Notes under the pieces: generated by a model | What the model was told of the DNA's origin: nothing | The model's database searches: none | What the model saw: the letters and a program-made list of their open reading frames with translations, nothing else | Position numbers and translations under genes: made by a program | Source: Candidatus Palauibacter rhopaloidicola | Lineage (GTDB): Bacteria > Gemmatimonadota > Gemmatimonadetes > Palauibacterales > Palauibacteraceae | Length of the DNA stretch: 64,000 nt | Assembly: GCA_026914155.1 (NCBI GenBank) | Contig: JAPPGH010000063.1 | Span: 34,283 to 98,282 of the forward strand | Reading direction: 5' to 3' | In this document: piece after piece, positions 25,481 through 64,000 of the stretch | Numbering within the stretch: position 1 is the stretch's first letter | How the letters are laid out: each line of letters opens with the position of its first letter

Positions 25481-25580
25481 CGACCCCAGGCGGGCCGTGG
25501 CGACCGTCACACGCTTACCGCTGCTACCTTCACGGTCCTGACGGGATTTGCGCGCTCCGGCCCCACGGGCCTGGGGCACC
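25481..25580 (-). ncRNA. ffs: signal recognition particle RNA (small/4.5S type)
   Basis: The minus strand reads GGUGCCCCAGGCCCGUGG...CCCGUCAGGACC-GUGA-AGGUAGCAGCGG...CCACGGCCCGCCUGGGGUCG. This has the conserved domain IV motif (GUCAGG.CC-GNRA-AGG.AGCAGC) and 5'/3' ends that pair. The location upstream of dnaX is a widely conserved synteny. Confidence 0.85.
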
Positions 25581-45608: not shown

Positions 45609-45679
45609 TTGGCCCCCCAGGGGTCGAACCTGGATCATCGGCTCCAAAGGCCGGTGTCTTGCCATTAGACGAGGGGCCA
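45609..45679 (-). tRNA. tRNA-Gln (anticodon UUG)
   Basis: Hand-folded on the minus strand. Acceptor UGGCCCC/GGGGCCA, D-arm GUCU-AAUGGCA-AGAC, anticodon arm CCGGC-CUUUGGA-GCCGA (one C.A mismatch), variable loop UGAU, T-arm CCAGG-UUCGACC-CCUGG, discriminator A. No encoded CCA. The U1-A72 pair is typical of bacterial tRNA-Gln. Confidence 0.9.
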
Positions 45680-58777: not shown

Positions 58778-59323
58778 CTACGCACGCGCAGTCGCCTCTT
58801 CTCTACGGGAAGTCGGTCCACCGTACTTATCGTCCAAGATGTAGTACGCTTGTTTGGCGCAGGACTTGTTCAACCATTTGCTCGTCGTAAAGCCCATAAC
58901 TGCAGATCTCGCATCCAGCTTCTGCATCCCGGCTTCCAACTCGGTCAACGAGGATCGAACCTCATCATCGCTAATGGAATAGCTTTCGATGTCATCCCAG
59001 AGCTGGGTTAGCCTTCCCTCCAACTGCCCGTACTCCTCGACCAGCAACCCCACACGTACCCGCTTGGTCGAATAGTCCCTTGCCATGTCAAGGACGGTTG
59101 CCAGAAGGACAATGGTGGCAACCACGAGCTTGATAACCTCATGTCCTGTCGGCAGGAAGTTTATCAACTCCAAACCGACTCCCGTTGCTCCCGCCAGAAT
59201 GATGACGCGTATGGACACACGCATCCTCTCGTAACGGGTTCGTAATCTGTCGTAGTATCTCACGAGCCGGGTAACGTCGAGAACGTGTTCCCATACCATT
59301 GCTCGCCGGTGAGGGTTCACCAT
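58778..59323 (-). CDS. two-TM protein, SLATT/DUF4231-like (putative membrane effector)
   Basis: 181 aa with its own AAGGAG SD 8 nt before the ATG and visibly lower GC and third-position GC than its neighbours. Layout: Y/R-rich helix (LVRYYDRLRTRYERMR), TM1 (VSIRVIILAGATGVGLELINFL), short loop PTGHE, TM2 (VIKLVVATIVLLATVLDMA), then a helical tail. The family call is by architecture from memory. Confidence 0.6.
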   Translation of the reverse strand: MVNPHRRAMVWEHVLDVTRLVRYYDRLRTRYERMRVSIRVIILAGATGVGLELINFLPTGHEVIKLVVATIVLLATVLDMARDYSTKRVRVGLLVEEYGQLEGRLTQLWDDIESYSISDDEVRSSLTELEAGMQKLDARSAVMGFTTSKWLNKSCAKQAYYILDDKYGGPTSRREEATARA

Positions 59324-59910
59324 GATGCTCTCTCCTTCGATGGAAGGCCCCGATCTCTTGCCCCTTCAAGCTTTAGGCTGTGTTCAGAACCTAGGATTAC
59401 CCGAGAAGAACACACAACCTTACCTACGTTTCCAACCGTCGTCCGGTTCCCCGAAGCCACATGAGAAAGCTCCCCACCAACGGCCCTCAGGGTCGCCGCC
59501 GGGGCCGCTTCAACGCGCCGCCGAAAACGGCCCGCCGACAGCTGCTGGCCCAGGCCCTTCTCCGCGGTCGTGTCTGGACTGGTGGAGAGGATTTCTATGA
59601 TGCGGTCCAGGCGATTCTCGACACGGGTCAACCGCCTGTCGAGGCGAGCCCCGGTCTCCCTGATATCGGCACTCAGGCGGGATTCGACGGCGGCAAGCTC
59701 CTCCGTCAAGCGGACATCCAGCCCGGTAGTCCCGTCCTCCGGGCGGACCCCAAGGCGGACGCCCAGCCCAGCGATTCTGTCCCCCAGACGGACCTCCATG
59801 GAGACGATGTCTCCCTCGAGATCCTCCCTGATGCCATCGAGCATCAGCCAGGTCAAGGTGAAGCACGCGATCATTACGCTGATCGTGGGCGTATTCGGGT
59901 TCCGCAGCAT
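59317..59910 (-). CDS. N-terminally anchored protein with 11-residue (x-R-L-x7-8) repeats; 3' third of the ORF is of doubtful coding quality
   Basis: 197 aa with a TM (ISVMIACFTLTWLML), then VRLGDRIAGLG / VRLGVRPED.. / VRLTEELAAVE / SRLSADIRETG / ARLDRRLTRVE / NRLDRIIEILS. After about codon 125 the sequence turns low-GC and non-protein-like. The stop overlaps the next ATG (ATGGTGA). Confidence 0.5.
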   Translation of the reverse strand: MLRNPNTPTISVMIACFTLTWLMLDGIREDLEGDIVSMEVRLGDRIAGLGVRLGVRPEDGTTGLDVRLTEELAAVESRLSADIRETGARLDRRLTRVENRLDRIIEILSTSPDTTAEKGLGQQLSAGRFRRRVEAAPAATLRAVGGELSHVASGNRTTVGNVGKVVCSSRVILGSEHSLKLEGARDRGLPSKERASW

Positions 59911-60683: not shown

Positions 60684-61201
60684 TCGTCCACCTCCCGTGG
60701 CGGACGCCGCTCCCGTCGCGGACTTCCCTCCCGTCGCGCCGCCGCGAGTTCCAGGGCCCGCGCCGCCGCCTCCGCCGCGTCCTCGGCCGTCTCGTCGACC
60801 ACATCCTCCGGCAGCGATGCCGCGAGCCCGATCACGGGCACGCCGAACTTCCGGCAGAAGGCCGCCTCGCTGAGCGTGCCCCACTCGCCGGCGATCGCGA
60901 CCACGGCCTCGGAGGCCCGCGCCACGATGACGTTCCGCGCCTCTCCGAGTCCGGTCGGGACCGGGATCGTGACCCCGTCCGCCGCCGCGCCCGGATCTCC
61001 GCCGGGCAGGATCCCCACCACGGTCCCCCCTTCCGAGGAAGCTCCGTCGGCGGCCGCCCGCATGACGCCGCCCATGCCGCCGCACACCACGATGGCCCCG
61101 GCGCGGGCGAGGGCCGCCCCGACCGCGTGGGCCAAGCCCGCTTCCGCCGGCGCCGCCGTTCCCGAGCCGATGACCCCGATCCGCAGCGGCCGCACCGTCA
61201 C
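60680..61201 (-). CDS. TIGR00725-family protein (LOG/SLOG Rossmann-like superfamily)
   Basis: 173 aa from GTG 61201 (GTGA overlap with the dtd stop): IGVIGSG......A..VG.ALARAGAIVVCGGMGGVMRAAADGA...GGTVVGILPG, TGLGEARNVIVA.ASEAVVAI.GEWGTLSE. This matches the TIGR00725/LOG-like pattern from memory. Confidence 0.75.
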   Translation of the reverse strand: MTVRPLRIGVIGSGTAAPAEAGLAHAVGAALARAGAIVVCGGMGGVMRAAADGASSEGGTVVGILPGGDPGAAADGVTIPVPTGLGEARNVIVARASEAVVAIAGEWGTLSEAAFCRKFGVPVIGLAASLPEDVVDETAEDAAEAAARALELAAARREGSPRRERRPPREVDE

Positions 61202-61632
61202 CGCTCCAGTTGCAGGGTCACGGGGCCGTCGTTGACCAGTTCCACCTCCATCATCGCGCCGAACTCCCCTTCCGCCACCTCGCCGCCCTTCCGGCACAGC
61301 TCCACGAAACGGTCGTAGAGCGCCCGGGCCTCGTCCGGCCGCGCCGCTCCCGTAAAGGACGGACGCCGGCCCCTCCTCGCATCCCCGTACAGCGTGAACT
61401 GGGACACGATGAGGAGCGCCCCCCCGACGTCCCGGGCGGAGCGGTTCATGCGGCCCTCGGCGTCCGCGAACAGGCGCAGGCCCCACAGCTTGTCCGCCAT
61501 CCAGGCCATCGTCGCCTCGGAGTCATCCGGCGCGAAACCCGCGAGAACGACGAGCCCGGGGCCGATCGCCCCGACGACCTCGCCTCCGACCCGGACGCGG
61601 GCCTGGCTGACTCGTTGAATCACGACTCGCAA
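61198..61632 (-). CDS. dtd: D-aminoacyl-tRNA deacylase
   Basis: From TTG 61632: (M)RVVIQRVSQARV.V.GEVVG.IG.GLVVL.G....D, SQFTLYGD...G.RPSF and NDGPVT, the canonical Dtd motifs. The track ORF begins at GTG 61689. Confidence 0.9.
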   Translation of the reverse strand: MRVVIQRVSQARVRVGGEVVGAIGPGLVVLAGFAPDDSEATMAWMADKLWGLRLFADAEGRMNRSARDVGGALLIVSQFTLYGDARRGRRPSFTGAARPDEARALYDRFVELCRKGGEVAEGEFGAMMEVELVNDGPVTLQLER

Positions 61633-61787
61633 TTGCGCCGTCCCGTTGCCGACCCCGGCCGTTCGTGGCAAGCCGGTTTTCCACAGCACATCAAAAGCGG
61701 TGAACGACGAAAAGATGCGACAGCGCTCGATCCCGGGCGACTCCGCTGGCGGCCGAGCGGGCGCCCGATTTCAAAATCCACGTTATT

Positions 61788-61815
61788 TGGACAAGATATG
61801 GACAGTTTTTGGACA
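61788..61815 (-). promoter_or_regulatory. three direct TGTCCA repeats phased at exactly 11 bp
   Basis: TGGACA on the plus strand at 61788..61793, 61799..61804 and 61810..61815. The minus strand reads ATGTCCAAAAA CTGTCCATATC TTGTCCAAATA. The array is about 155-185 nt upstream of dtd and just downstream of the U-run terminator. Confidence 0.5.
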
Positions 61816-61827
61816 TCATTTTTTTTG

Positions 61828-61860
61828 AAAAAAATGAGAAGCGCCATCCAAGGATCGCGC
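61828..61860 (-). terminator. intrinsic-terminator-like hairpin plus U7
   Basis: Minus-strand RNA: GCGCGAUC-CUUG-GAUGGCGC (61860..61841, 8 bp with one G.G mismatch), then UUCUCA, then UUUUUUU (61834..61828). Confidence 0.55.
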
Positions 61861-62060
61861 AGCTCCCCGGCCGGCATCTTCCCCGGGCCGGGAGTCCGGT
61901 CGGACGAAGCGGCTGAAGGGAGGGGCCGGCCCACGGTAAGCGGTCGTGATCGTTGGGTGTCCAGCGACGACCCGGTTCGGGTCCGACAACGAACCGCAAT
62001 CCCGGCAGGAGGGCGCCCGCCCGGGCACCGTGGAGATCGCGAACAAGTAGAGGTAGATGT

Positions 62061-62099
62061 ACTCAGCCCCTGGCCACCCGAAGGTGTCAGGGGCTGAGC
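62061..62099 (-). other. long hairpin: 12-bp outer stem enclosing a UUCG-capped inner stem
   Basis: Minus-strand RNA: GCUCAGCCCCUG-A-CACC-UUCG-GGUG-GC-CAGGGGCUGAGU. The 11 Watson-Crick pairs at 62062..62072 / 62088..62098 were read directly, plus a terminal G.U. Confidence 0.8.
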
Positions 62100-62373
62100 A
62101 AGGAAGCTTGTTTACGGCCAACTACCGCCCGGTCCTGGTAGCTTGCGCGGTCTTCCAGAACCTCGCCGCGAGCCTGGTACCGTCTGTCCGACCAGCTGTG
62201 CTCGATCCCTCTTCCCTCGATCGCCTCGTTCCGTCGCCGGAACTCCGCTCCCTCAGGCCCGGGACTCGCGCCCCGGTTTCGCGATCTCGCGTCGGGCAAC
62301 TCGCGGTGCGGTCATCGGCCTCGACCTCCGGTCGGTCGGTGCCGCCTCCCTTAGCACGCCCTGATTCTAAAAA

Positions 62374-62402
62374 GATTTTTTTGGGCCGTCAACCTCGAAC
62401 CG
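62374..62402 (-). promoter_or_regulatory. near-consensus sigma70-type promoter (TTGACG-N17-TAGAAT)
   Basis: Minus strand: TTGACG (62402..62397), the 17-nt A/T-rich spacer GCCCAAAAAAATCTTTT, then TAGAAT (62379..62374). It stands in an AT-rich patch within GC-rich DNA. Confidence 0.6.
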
Positions 62403-62480
62403 CCACGAGTCGCATTTTTTTCAAAAACTCATCGACCGAATCGCCATCCTCCGCAGCAATCCGCAGGAGAAAACCAGATT

Positions 62481-62783
62481 TTAGCGAGATCCCCACTCCC
62501 GCACCCACCCGATCCCCTCGTAGTGAGTCGGCATCTCGCGAGGCGGAGGCTCGGGGAGTTGATACTCCTCACCCTCGAAGGTGAACATGACCCGCACCGA
62601 TCCCGTGGGCGGGTCGTCCGTCCATACTTCCGTCCGCTGATTCCGAATCTCGCGAGGCACGAATTCGGTGAATGGATCCTCCTGGTCCTCGAGGGGGAAC
62701 GTCACTCGCATCGACACCGGCGTGCCTTCGGCGTCCGTCAATATCTCCGTCTTGGCTCCCGCCCGTTCGGTGGTCCCGGTCAT
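62481..62783 (-). CDS. hypothetical small acidic protein with internal duplication
   Basis: 100 aa with GGGAGGAACAC before the ATG. The two halves resemble each other: VSMRVTFPLEDQED...PREI...W versus VRVMFTFEGEEYQ...PREM...W. It lies directly downstream of the SF1 helicase gene. Confidence 0.6.
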   Translation of the reverse strand: MTGTTERAGAKTEILTDAEGTPVSMRVTFPLEDQEDPFTEFVPREIRNQRTEVWTDDPPTGSVRVMFTFEGEEYQLPEPPPREMPTHYEGIGWVREWGSR

Positions 62784-62890
62784 GTGTTCCTCCCTCGCTC
62801 CTCCTGCGGATGAACCTCCGTACTGGCTCTAACGTCGCGCGGCGGGACAACGGTCGAAAGGCTCGTCGGAACGCCTCTGATCGGGTTCGA

Positions 62891-64000
62891 TCAGGTGCCG
62901 CTCCAGAGGTCGGTGGGGGTGGCGTCGATGCGGGAGCCGGTTCGTTGGACGTGGGTGAGGAGGCGGTTGAGGAGGGCTTCCGGTGGTAGCGTTCGTCGGA
63001 GGCCGGTGACGGTCGCGACGATGACGAGGCGCTCGCGGGCGCGGGAGAGGGCGACGTTGAGGAGGCGGGGGAAGTCCCGGTTCCGGCGCTCGTCGAGGAA
63101 CCAGCTGCGGCCGGGGGGTGCGTCCACCGTGTCGATGACGACGAGGCGCTTCTCCCTCCCCTGGAAACGATGGATCGTGCTCACCTCCAGGTCGGCGGGC
63201 GCGGCGCGGCCGAGCCGGCGGCGGATGAGATCGTTCAGGTGGCGGGTCTGGGCGCGGTAAGGGGAGACCACCGCGATGTCCCGGACTCCGTCGCGGGCCG
63301 CGGCGCCGAGGAAGTCCGCCACGGCCTCGGCGTGGACGCGGTTCCGACGCGACCCGTCCACGCGTTCGACGCGCGGATCGAGGCCGCTCGTGTCGAGCAC
63401 GGTGAGGGCGGCCCGCTCCGCAGCGCTCCCCGCCGCACGGCCCGTCGCCTGCACCGCCCCGCGCTCGGCGACCTCCGGCGCATCCCGGAGCCGTCCGCCG
63501 TAGAAGAACTCGCTCACCAGTTCGCGGATGTCAGGCGCCATCCGGTACTGGAGATCTAGCATCGCGCATAGCCCGTCGTTCGGGGAGGGCAGCGCGTGGC
63601 CGGCCCCTGCCCCGCCCCAGGCGCCCGACCCGCCCGCGGCGCCCGGCCCGCCCGCGGCCTCCGCAGGGTCGCCGGCCCCTGCCCGGTCCACGACGCCCGC
63701 CTCCCGGAACAGGTCCGTCCGCAGCCAGCGCGCGGCCGTCGGGGCCGTGCTCGACACGACCGGGGGGAGCTGCTGGAAGTCGCCCACGGCGATCGCGGGG
63801 CCCGCGACCCTCGAGGCGGCGAACGCCACGTAGGGGAGCGGCGCCGTGCTCGCCTCGTCGATGAGCAACGACTCGAACCTCAGCTCGCGGAGTTCCTCCC
63901 GGATCGAGAGCCGGGCGAAGGTCGTGAGGACGATGTCCGCCTCCTCCAGCACCCGTTCCGCCTGGCGGGCGATCTCGAGCATGACGCGGCCCAGGTTGCG
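62891..64000 (-). CDS. SF1 helicase, Upf1/DNA2-like (AAA_11/AAA_12-type), C-terminal part; the gene continues beyond the right edge
   Basis: LLIDEASTA (motif II region), VGDFQQLPPV (III), LDLQYRMAPDI (IV), VVSPYRAQ, STIHRFQGREKRLVVIDTV (V) and LLNVALSRARERLVIV (VI). The frame stays open through position 64000. A Gly/Ala-rich insert lies between motifs III and IV. Confidence 0.85.
   Translation of the reverse strand, partial: RNLGRVMLEIARQAERVLEEADIVLTTFARLSIREELRELRFESLLIDEASTAPLPYVAFAASRVAGPAIAVGDFQQLPPVVSSTAPTAARWLRTDLFREAGVVDRAGAGDPAEAAGGPGAAGGSGAWGGAGAGHALPSPNDGLCAMLDLQYRMAPDIRELVSEFFYGGRLRDAPEVAERGAVQATGRAAGSAAERAALTVLDTSGLDPRVERVDGSRRNRVHAEAVADFLGAAARDGVRDIAVVSPYRAQTRHLNDLIRRRLGRAAPADLEVSTIHRFQGREKRLVVIDTVDAPPGRSWFLDERRNRDFPRLLNVALSRARERLVIVATVTGLRRTLPPEALLNRLLTHVQRTGSRIDATPTDLWSGT

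Follow-up and report, generated by a model that had tools for sequence, protein, structure and literature searches.

A candidate new family of highly structured RNA encoded upstream of dtd in "Candidatus Palauibacter" and related Gemmatimonadota

Bacterial RNAs longer than 200 nucleotides (nt) that combine many covarying helices with invariant junctions are uncommon, and those that have been solved are usually ribozymes, ribonucleoprotein scaffolds, or self-assembling particles. Other well-described RNAs offer points of comparison. 6S RNA (~180 to 200 nt) is a long rod with paired 5' and 3' ends, a two-sided central bubble, and a terminal stem-loop, Ms1 RNA is ~300 nt long, and the T-box bulge has the consensus UGGNACC. 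The large RNAs OLE, ROOL, and GOLLD form homo-oligomers that are built by symmetric kissing loops with palindromic cores (PMC12286853). Here, we analyze a 64,000-nt stretch of contig JAPPGH010000063.1 from "Candidatus Palauibacter rhopaloidicola" (the window), a member of the Palauibacterales. We know of no lineage-specific RNA biology in this order. The Palauibacterales (formerly PAUC43f) are an uncultured, cosmopolitan order of Gemmatimonadota that is marine and associated with sponges and corals (PMC10469786). On the minus strand of the window, between a helicase gene and dtd, lies what we regard, with a probability of roughly 0.6, as a gene in its own right, whose product is a highly structured non-coding RNA that is new, restricted to one clade, and active in trans. 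The original prediction for this stretch was of an orphan, promoter-driven unit that lacks a convincing open reading frame (ORF) and encodes a novel structured RNA. Our comparisons support it, in that the promoter is conserved, Rfam holds no counterpart, the ORFs are broken in relatives, and the helices covary.

To define the element, we compared it with homologs from other genomes. Contigs fetched via their Dtd homologs had, in many relatives, a gene-free gap of ~700 to 800 base pairs (bp) between the helicase gene and dtd. The homolog set comprised 26 distinct sequences from Palauibacter and related Gemmatimonadota, representing roughly six lineages. Alignment of the gaps split the unit into a highly conserved part with sharp edges, made up of the promoter and ~305 nt, and an indel-rich 3' remainder. 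Identity of this core to the window sequence was 0.74 to 0.99, compared with 0.73 to 0.83 for the dtd coding sequence in the same genomes. When scored with a covariance model of the RNA (R1), whose E-values are only rough, the homologs reached 212 to 339 bits. In contrast, the spacer that follows the core carried many indels, ranged from 136 to 240 nt in length, and was only 48 to 72% identical to that of relatives, with 68 to 72% where the core is 99% identical. Thus, the ~0.5-kb promoter-to-terminator unit that had been proposed does exist, but the conserved RNA takes up only its 5' ~305 nt, while the 3' ~220 nt are variable.

Folding energies followed the same division. Relative to shuffled controls, a check that had been suggested for the whole interval, the 306-nt core was more stable (z = -3.10), as was the full 530-nt interval (z = -2.37). 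The spacer had z = -1.32, with 19 of 200 shuffles folding equally well. A 7-bp helix closing three hairpins (61931..62033) had been put forward as part of the structure. Although it can be drawn, it sits in this variable spacer and its stems are not kept in the nearest relatives, and we do not retain it.

The core is preceded by a sigma-70-type promoter (Table 1) with 10 of 12 matches in a promoter scan, which found no other promoter-like site in 61000-63000 (shuffles, 0.1 ± 0.4). TTGAC and the -10 element are kept in all homologs and lineages, and the flank upstream is variable. The predicted TTGACG-17-TAGAAT promoter is therefore real and conserved, but its coordinates had been given 10 too high (62402.. 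and 62379..). Transcription is predicted to begin at ~62357 (-), the start of an invariant GUGC. The spacer of the promoter is itself a third A/T palindrome, which reads A7-TC-T5 in the window and AAAAAGATCTTTTT in relatives.

Table 1. Coordinates of the RNA gene and of the elements that flank it in the window. RNA position n corresponds to window coordinate 62360-n.
Feature	RNA positions	Window coordinates	Strand	Description
Upstream A/T palindrome		62416..62427	-	T5-G-A6(7); starts 68 nt before RNA core position 1
Sigma-70-type promoter		62364..62392	-	-35 TTGACG 62392..62387; 17-bp spacer A7-TC-T5; -10 TAGAAT 62369..62364
RNA core, ~304-305 nt		62054..62357	-	Conservation from GUGC (~62357) through GURCAUC (~62054)
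P1, closing helix	10-16 / 253-259	62344..62350 with 62101..62107	-	GGGAGGC/GCUUCCU; 95% of cells paired, sole changes G-C to G-U
P2, hairpin	17-43	62317..62343	-	GGC..CGACC / GGUCG..GCC; 99.5% paired, nearly invariant
P3, long-range helix	49-52 / 232-235	62311..62308 with 62125..62128	-	Covarying C-G/G-C/G-U
P3b, long-range helix	54-62 / 186-194	62306..62298 with 62166..62174	-	3' strand GGCUCGCGG
P4, long-range helix	63-68 / 169-174	62297..62292 with 62186..62191	-	3' strand UCGGAC; C-G/U-A covariation
P4b, long-range helix	70-77 / 153-160	62290..62283 with 62200..62207	-	
P5, hairpin	84-101	62259..62276	-	CCGGGGC-GCGA-GUCCCGG, GNRA-type loop; 98% paired, both-sided change in 4 of 7 pairs
P6, hairpin	112-137	62223..62248	-	Internal loop and GNRA loop; 4 of 8 pairs changed on both sides
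CAGCUG palindrome		62193..62198	-	8-nt bulge between P4b and P4 3' strands; 25 of 26 sequences, CAGCUA in L047
GGUACC palindrome		62176..62181	-	11-nt bulge between P4 and P3b 3' strands; 26 of 26 sequences, flanking bases variable
P7, hairpin	198-229	62131..62162	-	Apical loop RCCGCGCAAN; 98% paired; G-C/A-U and G-C/C-G/U-A covariation
CCGCGCAA		62150..62143	-	Invariant, in P7 apical loop; contains CGCG
P8, terminal hairpin	260-300	62060..62100	-	13+4 bp, UUCG loop; 98.6% paired, 5 pairs change on both sides including Y260-R300
Variable GC-rich spacer		61838..62053	-	Contains three-hairpin junction; last ~48 nt (61836..61883) overlap terminator stem
Terminator-like end		61816..61883	-	Imperfect hairpin ~61883..61836; U7 61834..61828; second A/T palindrome 61816..61837
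Direct repeats, TGTCCAnA x3		61786..61815	-	11-bp period; between terminator and dtd

The consensus fold, obtained with RNAalifold on all 26 sequences and by manual inspection, has ten helices (Table 1). As predicted from these sequences, helix P1 closes the molecule and is followed by hairpin P2 and by a long, bent rod (P3-P3b-P4-P4b) that carries P7. The 5' strands of the four rod helices form one continuous stretch (62283..62311, minus strand). The rod has two large one-sided bulges and ends in a three-way junction with P5 and P6, both of them GNRA capped. The very stable terminal hairpin P8 would stack beside P1, whose 3' strand directly abuts it; P8 has a conserved CAUC on its 3' side and no U-tract. 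Two of the stems noticed in the original prediction recur in this fold at the coordinates where they had been placed, and both show compensatory changes: GUUCCG-GCGA-CGGAAC (62228..62243) is P6, and the 12-bp stem with a UUCG loop (62061..62099) is P8. Conserved unpaired sequences include, besides the two bulged palindromes and the P7 loop, a GUAA-containing strand that links P3 to P1 and reads GCCGUAAA in most sequences.

Covariation supports these helices. In a structure-blind MAFFT alignment (A3), standard pairs occupied 93.5% of 2154 cells. Nineteen pairs were changed on both sides, compared with 8.6 ± 1.9 in shuffles (0/500) and 5 to 10 when the partners were slid by 1 to 3 columns. In an alignment fitted to R1, 94.0% of cells were paired and 22 pairs were changed on both sides. 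The covariation check proposed for the stems thus came out above shuffled and slid controls in structure-blind and model-fitted alignments alike. Specifically, pair 52:248 of P3 is C-G, G-C, or G-U, and pair 66:187 of P4 is C-G in 16 sequences, U-A in 6, and U-G in 2. Two pairs of P6 alternate between U-A and C-G (128:139) or between C-G and U-A (129:138). In P7, pair 213:242 is G-C in 12 sequences and A-U in 11, and pair 219:236 is G-C, C-G, or U-A. Changes on both sides of P8 affect 260:300 (Y-R), 275:284 (A-U or G-C), and 264:296 (C-G or U-A). There were 189 G·U cells and 29 A·C cells, and the opposite strand would pair in 86.6%; this asymmetry therefore identifies the transcribed strand.

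Two rod helices were considered separately. MAFFT misaligned P3b, which we examined by duplex folding, strand by strand. P3b forms in every lineage with compensating sequences, among them CCGCGAGUU/GGCUCGCGG in the window, CCACGGA/UUCGUGG in L045, CACGAGCC/GGCUCGUG in L047, and CCGUGAGU/ACUCGCGG in L050, and it is compensatory in these three loci as well as in L042. Matched strands were only modestly better than cross-lineage combinations (permutation, 986/20000). In P4b, the tandem G·A/A·G of the window is replaced by G-C/A-U in L050 and by G-C in the L005 group. With roughly six lineages, phylogenetic signal overwhelmed a search of all columns against all others for covarying tertiary pairs.

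Competing secondary structures were set aside. The first RNAalifold fold, computed from Palauibacter sequences only, paired CCGACC (RNA 25-30) with GGUCGG and GGCACC with GGUACC. It was dropped in favor of P2 and P4 because the divergent homologs give C-G/U-A covariation at 66:187, and the GGCACC/GGUACC pairing is possible as a pseudoknot or an alternative fold. A local hairpin CUGGU/ACCAG in the minimum-free-energy fold of the single sequence was rejected, as a G-to-A change in its 5' arm is uncompensated, and so was a GCGGU/GCCGU hairpin that would rival P3 and is broken in L011 and L050. Taken together, the comparisons indicate that the RNA fold is constrained by selection and is the product of a conserved, promoter-driven gene.

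The RNA matched no described family. We used the 4227 models of Rfam 15, at the gathering threshold on the whole window and at E ≤ 10 on 61600-62600, and also searched five homologous loci. At the gathering threshold, the window contained only a tRNA and a signal recognition particle (SRP) RNA, both elsewhere. At E ≤ 10, the interval 61600-62600 gave a lone, spurious SmY match on the opposite strand, in an AT-rich block, and the five homologous loci had no match over the RNA. The absence of SRP, tmRNA, RNase P, and 6S features noted in the original prediction thus extended to every family, even at E ≤ 10. Specifically, ARAGORN on the whole window gave tRNA-Gln only and there was no match to the tmRNA clan of Rfam; for RNase P RNA there was no match at E ≤ 10, and the derived helices have no P4-like pseudoknot. 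The 6S model (RF00013) gave no match at E ≤ 10, and the fold here is branched and 305 nt long. Nor did the T-box model (RF00230) match at E ≤ 10 in 61600-62600 or the five homologous loci, and OLE, ROOL, GOLLD, and raiA had no covariance-model match in the window, in 61600-62600, or in the five loci. A sponge of the CsrB/RsmZ type was rejected, since the GGA of the P2 loop is lost in L047 and other GGA motifs lie in stems or variable linkers. Within the window, csrA was not found after alaS. In the literature, we found nothing on non-coding RNAs of Gemmatimonadota or Palauibacterales. Because none of the membership tests that could be run assigned it to a known family, we treat the RNA as a new one, meaning that by sequence and structure comparison it has no detectable relation to described families; the newness concerns the family and not the mechanism. 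The sole Rfam or ARAGORN matches in the window were a bacterial small SRP RNA (25481-25576, minus strand, 47.4 bits) and tRNA-Gln(UUG) (45609-45679, minus strand).

Homologs of the RNA are single copy and syntenic, in the order helicase, RNA, and dtd-recA-recX-alaS. Among 185,579 species-representative genomes, a pattern scan picked out 17 loci, each from a different GTDB species and with one match each. All were in Gemmatimonadota, and most were in "Candidatus Palauibacter". The same kind of scan in JGI metagenomes gave 12 matches, of which 4 were true and 8 were due to chance. This distribution is a lower bound and the true range is wider, because the patterns missed divergent members that were recovered by synteny (L011, L042, L045, L050, and L047/L048). 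As seen here, the carriers belong to one group of uncultured marine and soil Gemmatimonadota only. Pattern scans produced no matches among viral contigs, plasmids, or phages, and we rejected an origin in a phage, a plasmid, or a mobile element accordingly. We likewise rejected P8 as a repeated terminator or REP-like element, as it is not repeated within the window. Three related lineages lack the RNA within ±4 to 5 kb; there, the helicase gene overlaps dtd or lies right next to it, or a different gene takes up the gap. The pattern is thus that of an ~800-bp module inserted into a helicase-dtd arrangement that predates it.

Both ends of this module are marked by A/T-rich sequences. The U7 tract lies where the original prediction had put it (61834..61828), and an imperfect hairpin stops 1 nt before it; a simple terminator scan overlooked this end. 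In about half of the homologs, a hairpin is found within 2 nt of the T-run, and the stem sequences are unrelated. Such an arrangement is characteristic of an intrinsic terminator. The second A/T palindrome takes in the U7 tract. Palindromes of the form T5-N-A6 occur at two sites in the 64-kb window, both bracketing the RNA unit, where chance would give 0. The spacing of the upstream palindrome is 68 nt (67 to 69 in a few) in 21 of 24 scored homologs, and the simple pattern was unmatched in the other 3. The palindromes may act as bidirectional terminators that insulate the unit, or a protein with a DNA-bending or regulatory role may bind there.

We propose that transcription from ~62357 would run through a disposable spacer to the hairpin and U-tract terminator, and that the 3' tail would be trimmed back to P8, leaving a mature ~305-nt RNA that works in trans as a stable particle. 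CAGCUG, GGUACC, the CCGCGCAA loop, and GCCGUAAA may be where a protein partner, or further copies of the RNA, make contact. By analogy, we infer that the RNA acts in trans, either by binding a protein or by self-assembly. The ~800-bp module would have been inserted into a former helicase-dtd operon, with the A/T palindromes insulating both sides and a separate, repeat-bearing promoter restoring dtd expression after the insertion. Several points weigh against this proposal. The transcript ends, the abundance, and the processing at P8 are all deduced from sequence, and the trans-acting particle is drawn from analogy with other large structured bacterial RNAs. P1 and P2 are almost invariant, so covariation offers no test of them, and they contribute no covariation events. 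For the remaining helices, the events are few because the homologs form only about six lineages of one order. Finally, dtd-recA-recX-alaS follows the RNA directly and in the same orientation, which leaves room for a role in cis.

Such a cis-acting role is the main rival to a trans-acting RNA, though we consider it unlikely. The RNA would then be a riboswitch-like or attenuator leader of the dtd-SLOG-Zn-ribbon-recA-recX-alaS operon, in which the core senses a ligand, a tRNA, or a protein and controls read-through of P8 or of the U-tract terminator into dtd. In every homolog, dtd comes immediately 3' of the RNA and shares its orientation, the abutment of P1 on a strong P8 recalls an aptamer with its expression platform, and insertion of the module would have severed dtd from the helicase promoter. 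However, P8 has no U-tract, a variable spacer of 136 to 240 nt separates the core from the terminator, and an 11-bp-phased repeat block, typical of a regulated promoter, stands between the terminator and dtd. Restriction to one locus per genome in a narrow clade is also unlike known riboswitch classes. A point in favor of a leader is that the neighborhood is rich in tRNA-related genes (dtd, alaS, and the gene for the CCA-adding enzyme). Like a T-box, the RNA is upstream of a tRNA-related operon, and its bulged GGUACC is similar to part of the UGGNACC of the antiterminator bulge. Yet the GGUACC bulge is on the 3' strand of a long rod and not in an antiterminator hairpin, we recognized no Stem I or specifier, and a terminator and more than 400 nt lie between the RNA core and dtd. 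Neither a T-box nor any other cis-regulatory Rfam family matched. Furthermore, the base before GGUACC is C, U, G, or A among homologs, and the U that pairs with A76 in a T-box is not conserved for that reason.

A narrower version of the trans-acting proposal, which we hold to be improbable, is that the RNA is a self-assembling ornate RNA in which the palindromic GGUACC and CAGCUG and the CGCG-containing CCGCGCAA loop make symmetric intermolecular kissing contacts. If so, ~305-nt monomers would form a homodimer or a higher-order, RNA-only particle like those of OLE, ROOL, and GOLLD, in a phylum and a size class without any known case. We give still less credence to a role like that of 6S or Ms1 RNA, in which the RNA would bind RNA polymerase and modulate transcription globally. 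The RNA here looks like an abundant regulatory RNA with a stand-alone, single-copy, highly conserved gene and a near-consensus promoter, its length is near that of Ms1, and no 6S RNA was found in the 64-kb window, which is uninformative for the whole genome. But 6S and Ms1 RNAs have an architecture of closing stem, central bubble, and terminal stem that is missing here. The fold is branched, with one-sided bulges in place of a rod with a two-sided central bubble, and a 6S match was lacking even at the permissive threshold.

The least credible alternative is that conservation reflects a small protein (from a 20-, 70-, or 101-codon ORF) or a DNA-level element and not an RNA, and the substitution data speak against it. 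The 20-codon ORF (62253..62315) and the 70-codon TTG ORF (62087..62299) named in the original prediction exist in the window, and GGAGG does stand 9 nt upstream of the ATG at 62315, but neither ORF is conserved. At least 10 homologs have ACG, GCA, or AAG where the 20-codon ORF should start with ATG, and this start is lost in L005, L011, L012, L022, L045, L047, and L050, among others. The candidate ORFs of relatives differ in length by non-multiples of three and contain frameshifts and in-frame stops. The proposed check for 3-nt periodicity found none: minimum substitution counts were even over positions modulo 3 (94, 78, and 94; p = 0.38; 26 homologs), including within the candidate ORFs (p = 0.74 to 0.83). 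None of the ORFs over the RNA unit matched Pfam, and in the 13 homologous loci supplied with gene calls, no gene had been placed over the core. Some periodicity of GC content at third codon positions (GC3) at 61945-62080 would favor coding, but we rejected it because it falls in the variable spacer and because the ORFs are broken in relatives. Compensatory changes and the G·U/A·C asymmetry are strand-specific signals at the RNA level, which argues against a protein and a DNA element alike.

The surrounding genes form a co-directional array. On the minus strand, the SF1 helicase gene (AAA_11/AAA_12) is followed by an ORF of 100 amino acids (aa), the RNA, dtd (whose start is ~425 nt 3' of the RNA core and whose closest Dtd homologs in a homolog search are from Gemmatimonadota), a SLOG/LDcluster4 gene, and a Zn-ribbon-type gene. 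Beyond these are two ORFs without a Pfam match, recA, recX, alaS, an SDR gene, the gene for the CCA-adding enzyme, and MgsA. The 100-aa ORF (62481-62783, minus strand) lies between the helicase gene and the RNA promoter. Its GC3 is coding-like, and its only match is a subthreshold one to ThuA (16.9 bits, with a cutoff of 33.4 bits). It seems to be specific to the source genome or its closest relatives, because gene callers give no counterpart at the equivalent place in L001-L005. The two Pfam-less ORFs (181 and 197 aa) separate the Zn-ribbon-type gene from recA (58778-59910 and 59000-59450). In this stretch, GC content is only 0.51 to 0.56, compared with ~0.70 elsewhere, and the low-GC block may have been inserted recently. 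Several small unannotated genes occupy the same place in L001. In L007, L008, and L009 (8085-10447), which are Palauibacterales without the RNA, recA contains an intein (Intein_splicing and LAGLIDADG_3 domains), and the operon additionally contains an inserted aminotransferase gene.

Direct repeats with an 11-bp period, three or four of them, follow the terminator and precede dtd. They read TGTCCAnA in the window and TGTGGAnAAcG in L042 (2542-2575). Repeats of this period are also found upstream of dtd in L045, L047, and L050 and are missing in relatives without the RNA. The block lies outside the RNA and probably represents a regulated promoter that serves the dtd operon. Some copies match the DnaA box TGTGGATAA, and the block resembles Pho-box or OmpR-family operator arrays. 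We rejected a replication origin at the TGTGGA/TGTCCA repeats because a GC-skew switch is absent; the flanking genes are all co-oriented. Closer to dtd, CGCATCTTT (61700-61760, minus strand) is conserved ~90 nt 5' of the gene, and the motif GYCGCATCTTT or GGCCATCTTT is kept upstream of dtd in most RNA-carrying lineages. The motif may belong to the promoter or the 5' untranslated region of dtd.

The locus provides a clean, single-copy example of such an RNA, with clear gene boundaries. It offers a new family for Rfam-type curation, a tractable target for structure determination, and a metatranscriptomic activity marker for Palauibacterales. As we interpret it, it would also illustrate one way of insulating an RNA gene among co-directional neighbors, by means of A/T palindromes on either side and a substitute promoter for dtd.

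Set beside known systems, the RNA shares features with several. Like RNase P RNA and tmRNA (300 to 400 nt), it has long-range helices, GNRA loops, a similar length, conservation above that of neighboring genes, and, probably, a 3' trailer and terminator on its primary transcript. It differs from them in having no tRNA-like end or P4-type consensus. Moreover, it was found in only a part of a single order, and three related lineages lack it at the corresponding locus. OLE, ROOL, and GOLLD differ in size (~580 to 800 nt, compared with ~305 nt here) and belong to phyla other than Gemmatimonadota, and no phage or mobile-element context was found for the RNA here in the sets scanned. Nevertheless, the RNA has in common with OLE, ROOL, GOLLD, and the raiA motif RNA a stand-alone gene, a multihelix fold backed by covariation, GNRA-capped hairpins, invariant loops and junctions alongside covarying helices, and a narrow taxonomic range. 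With OLE, ROOL, and GOLLD it further shares conserved self-complementary sequences in loops or bulges, from which oligomerization here is a conjecture. In these respects, it resembles the class of large structured RNAs of unknown function while belonging to none of its known members.

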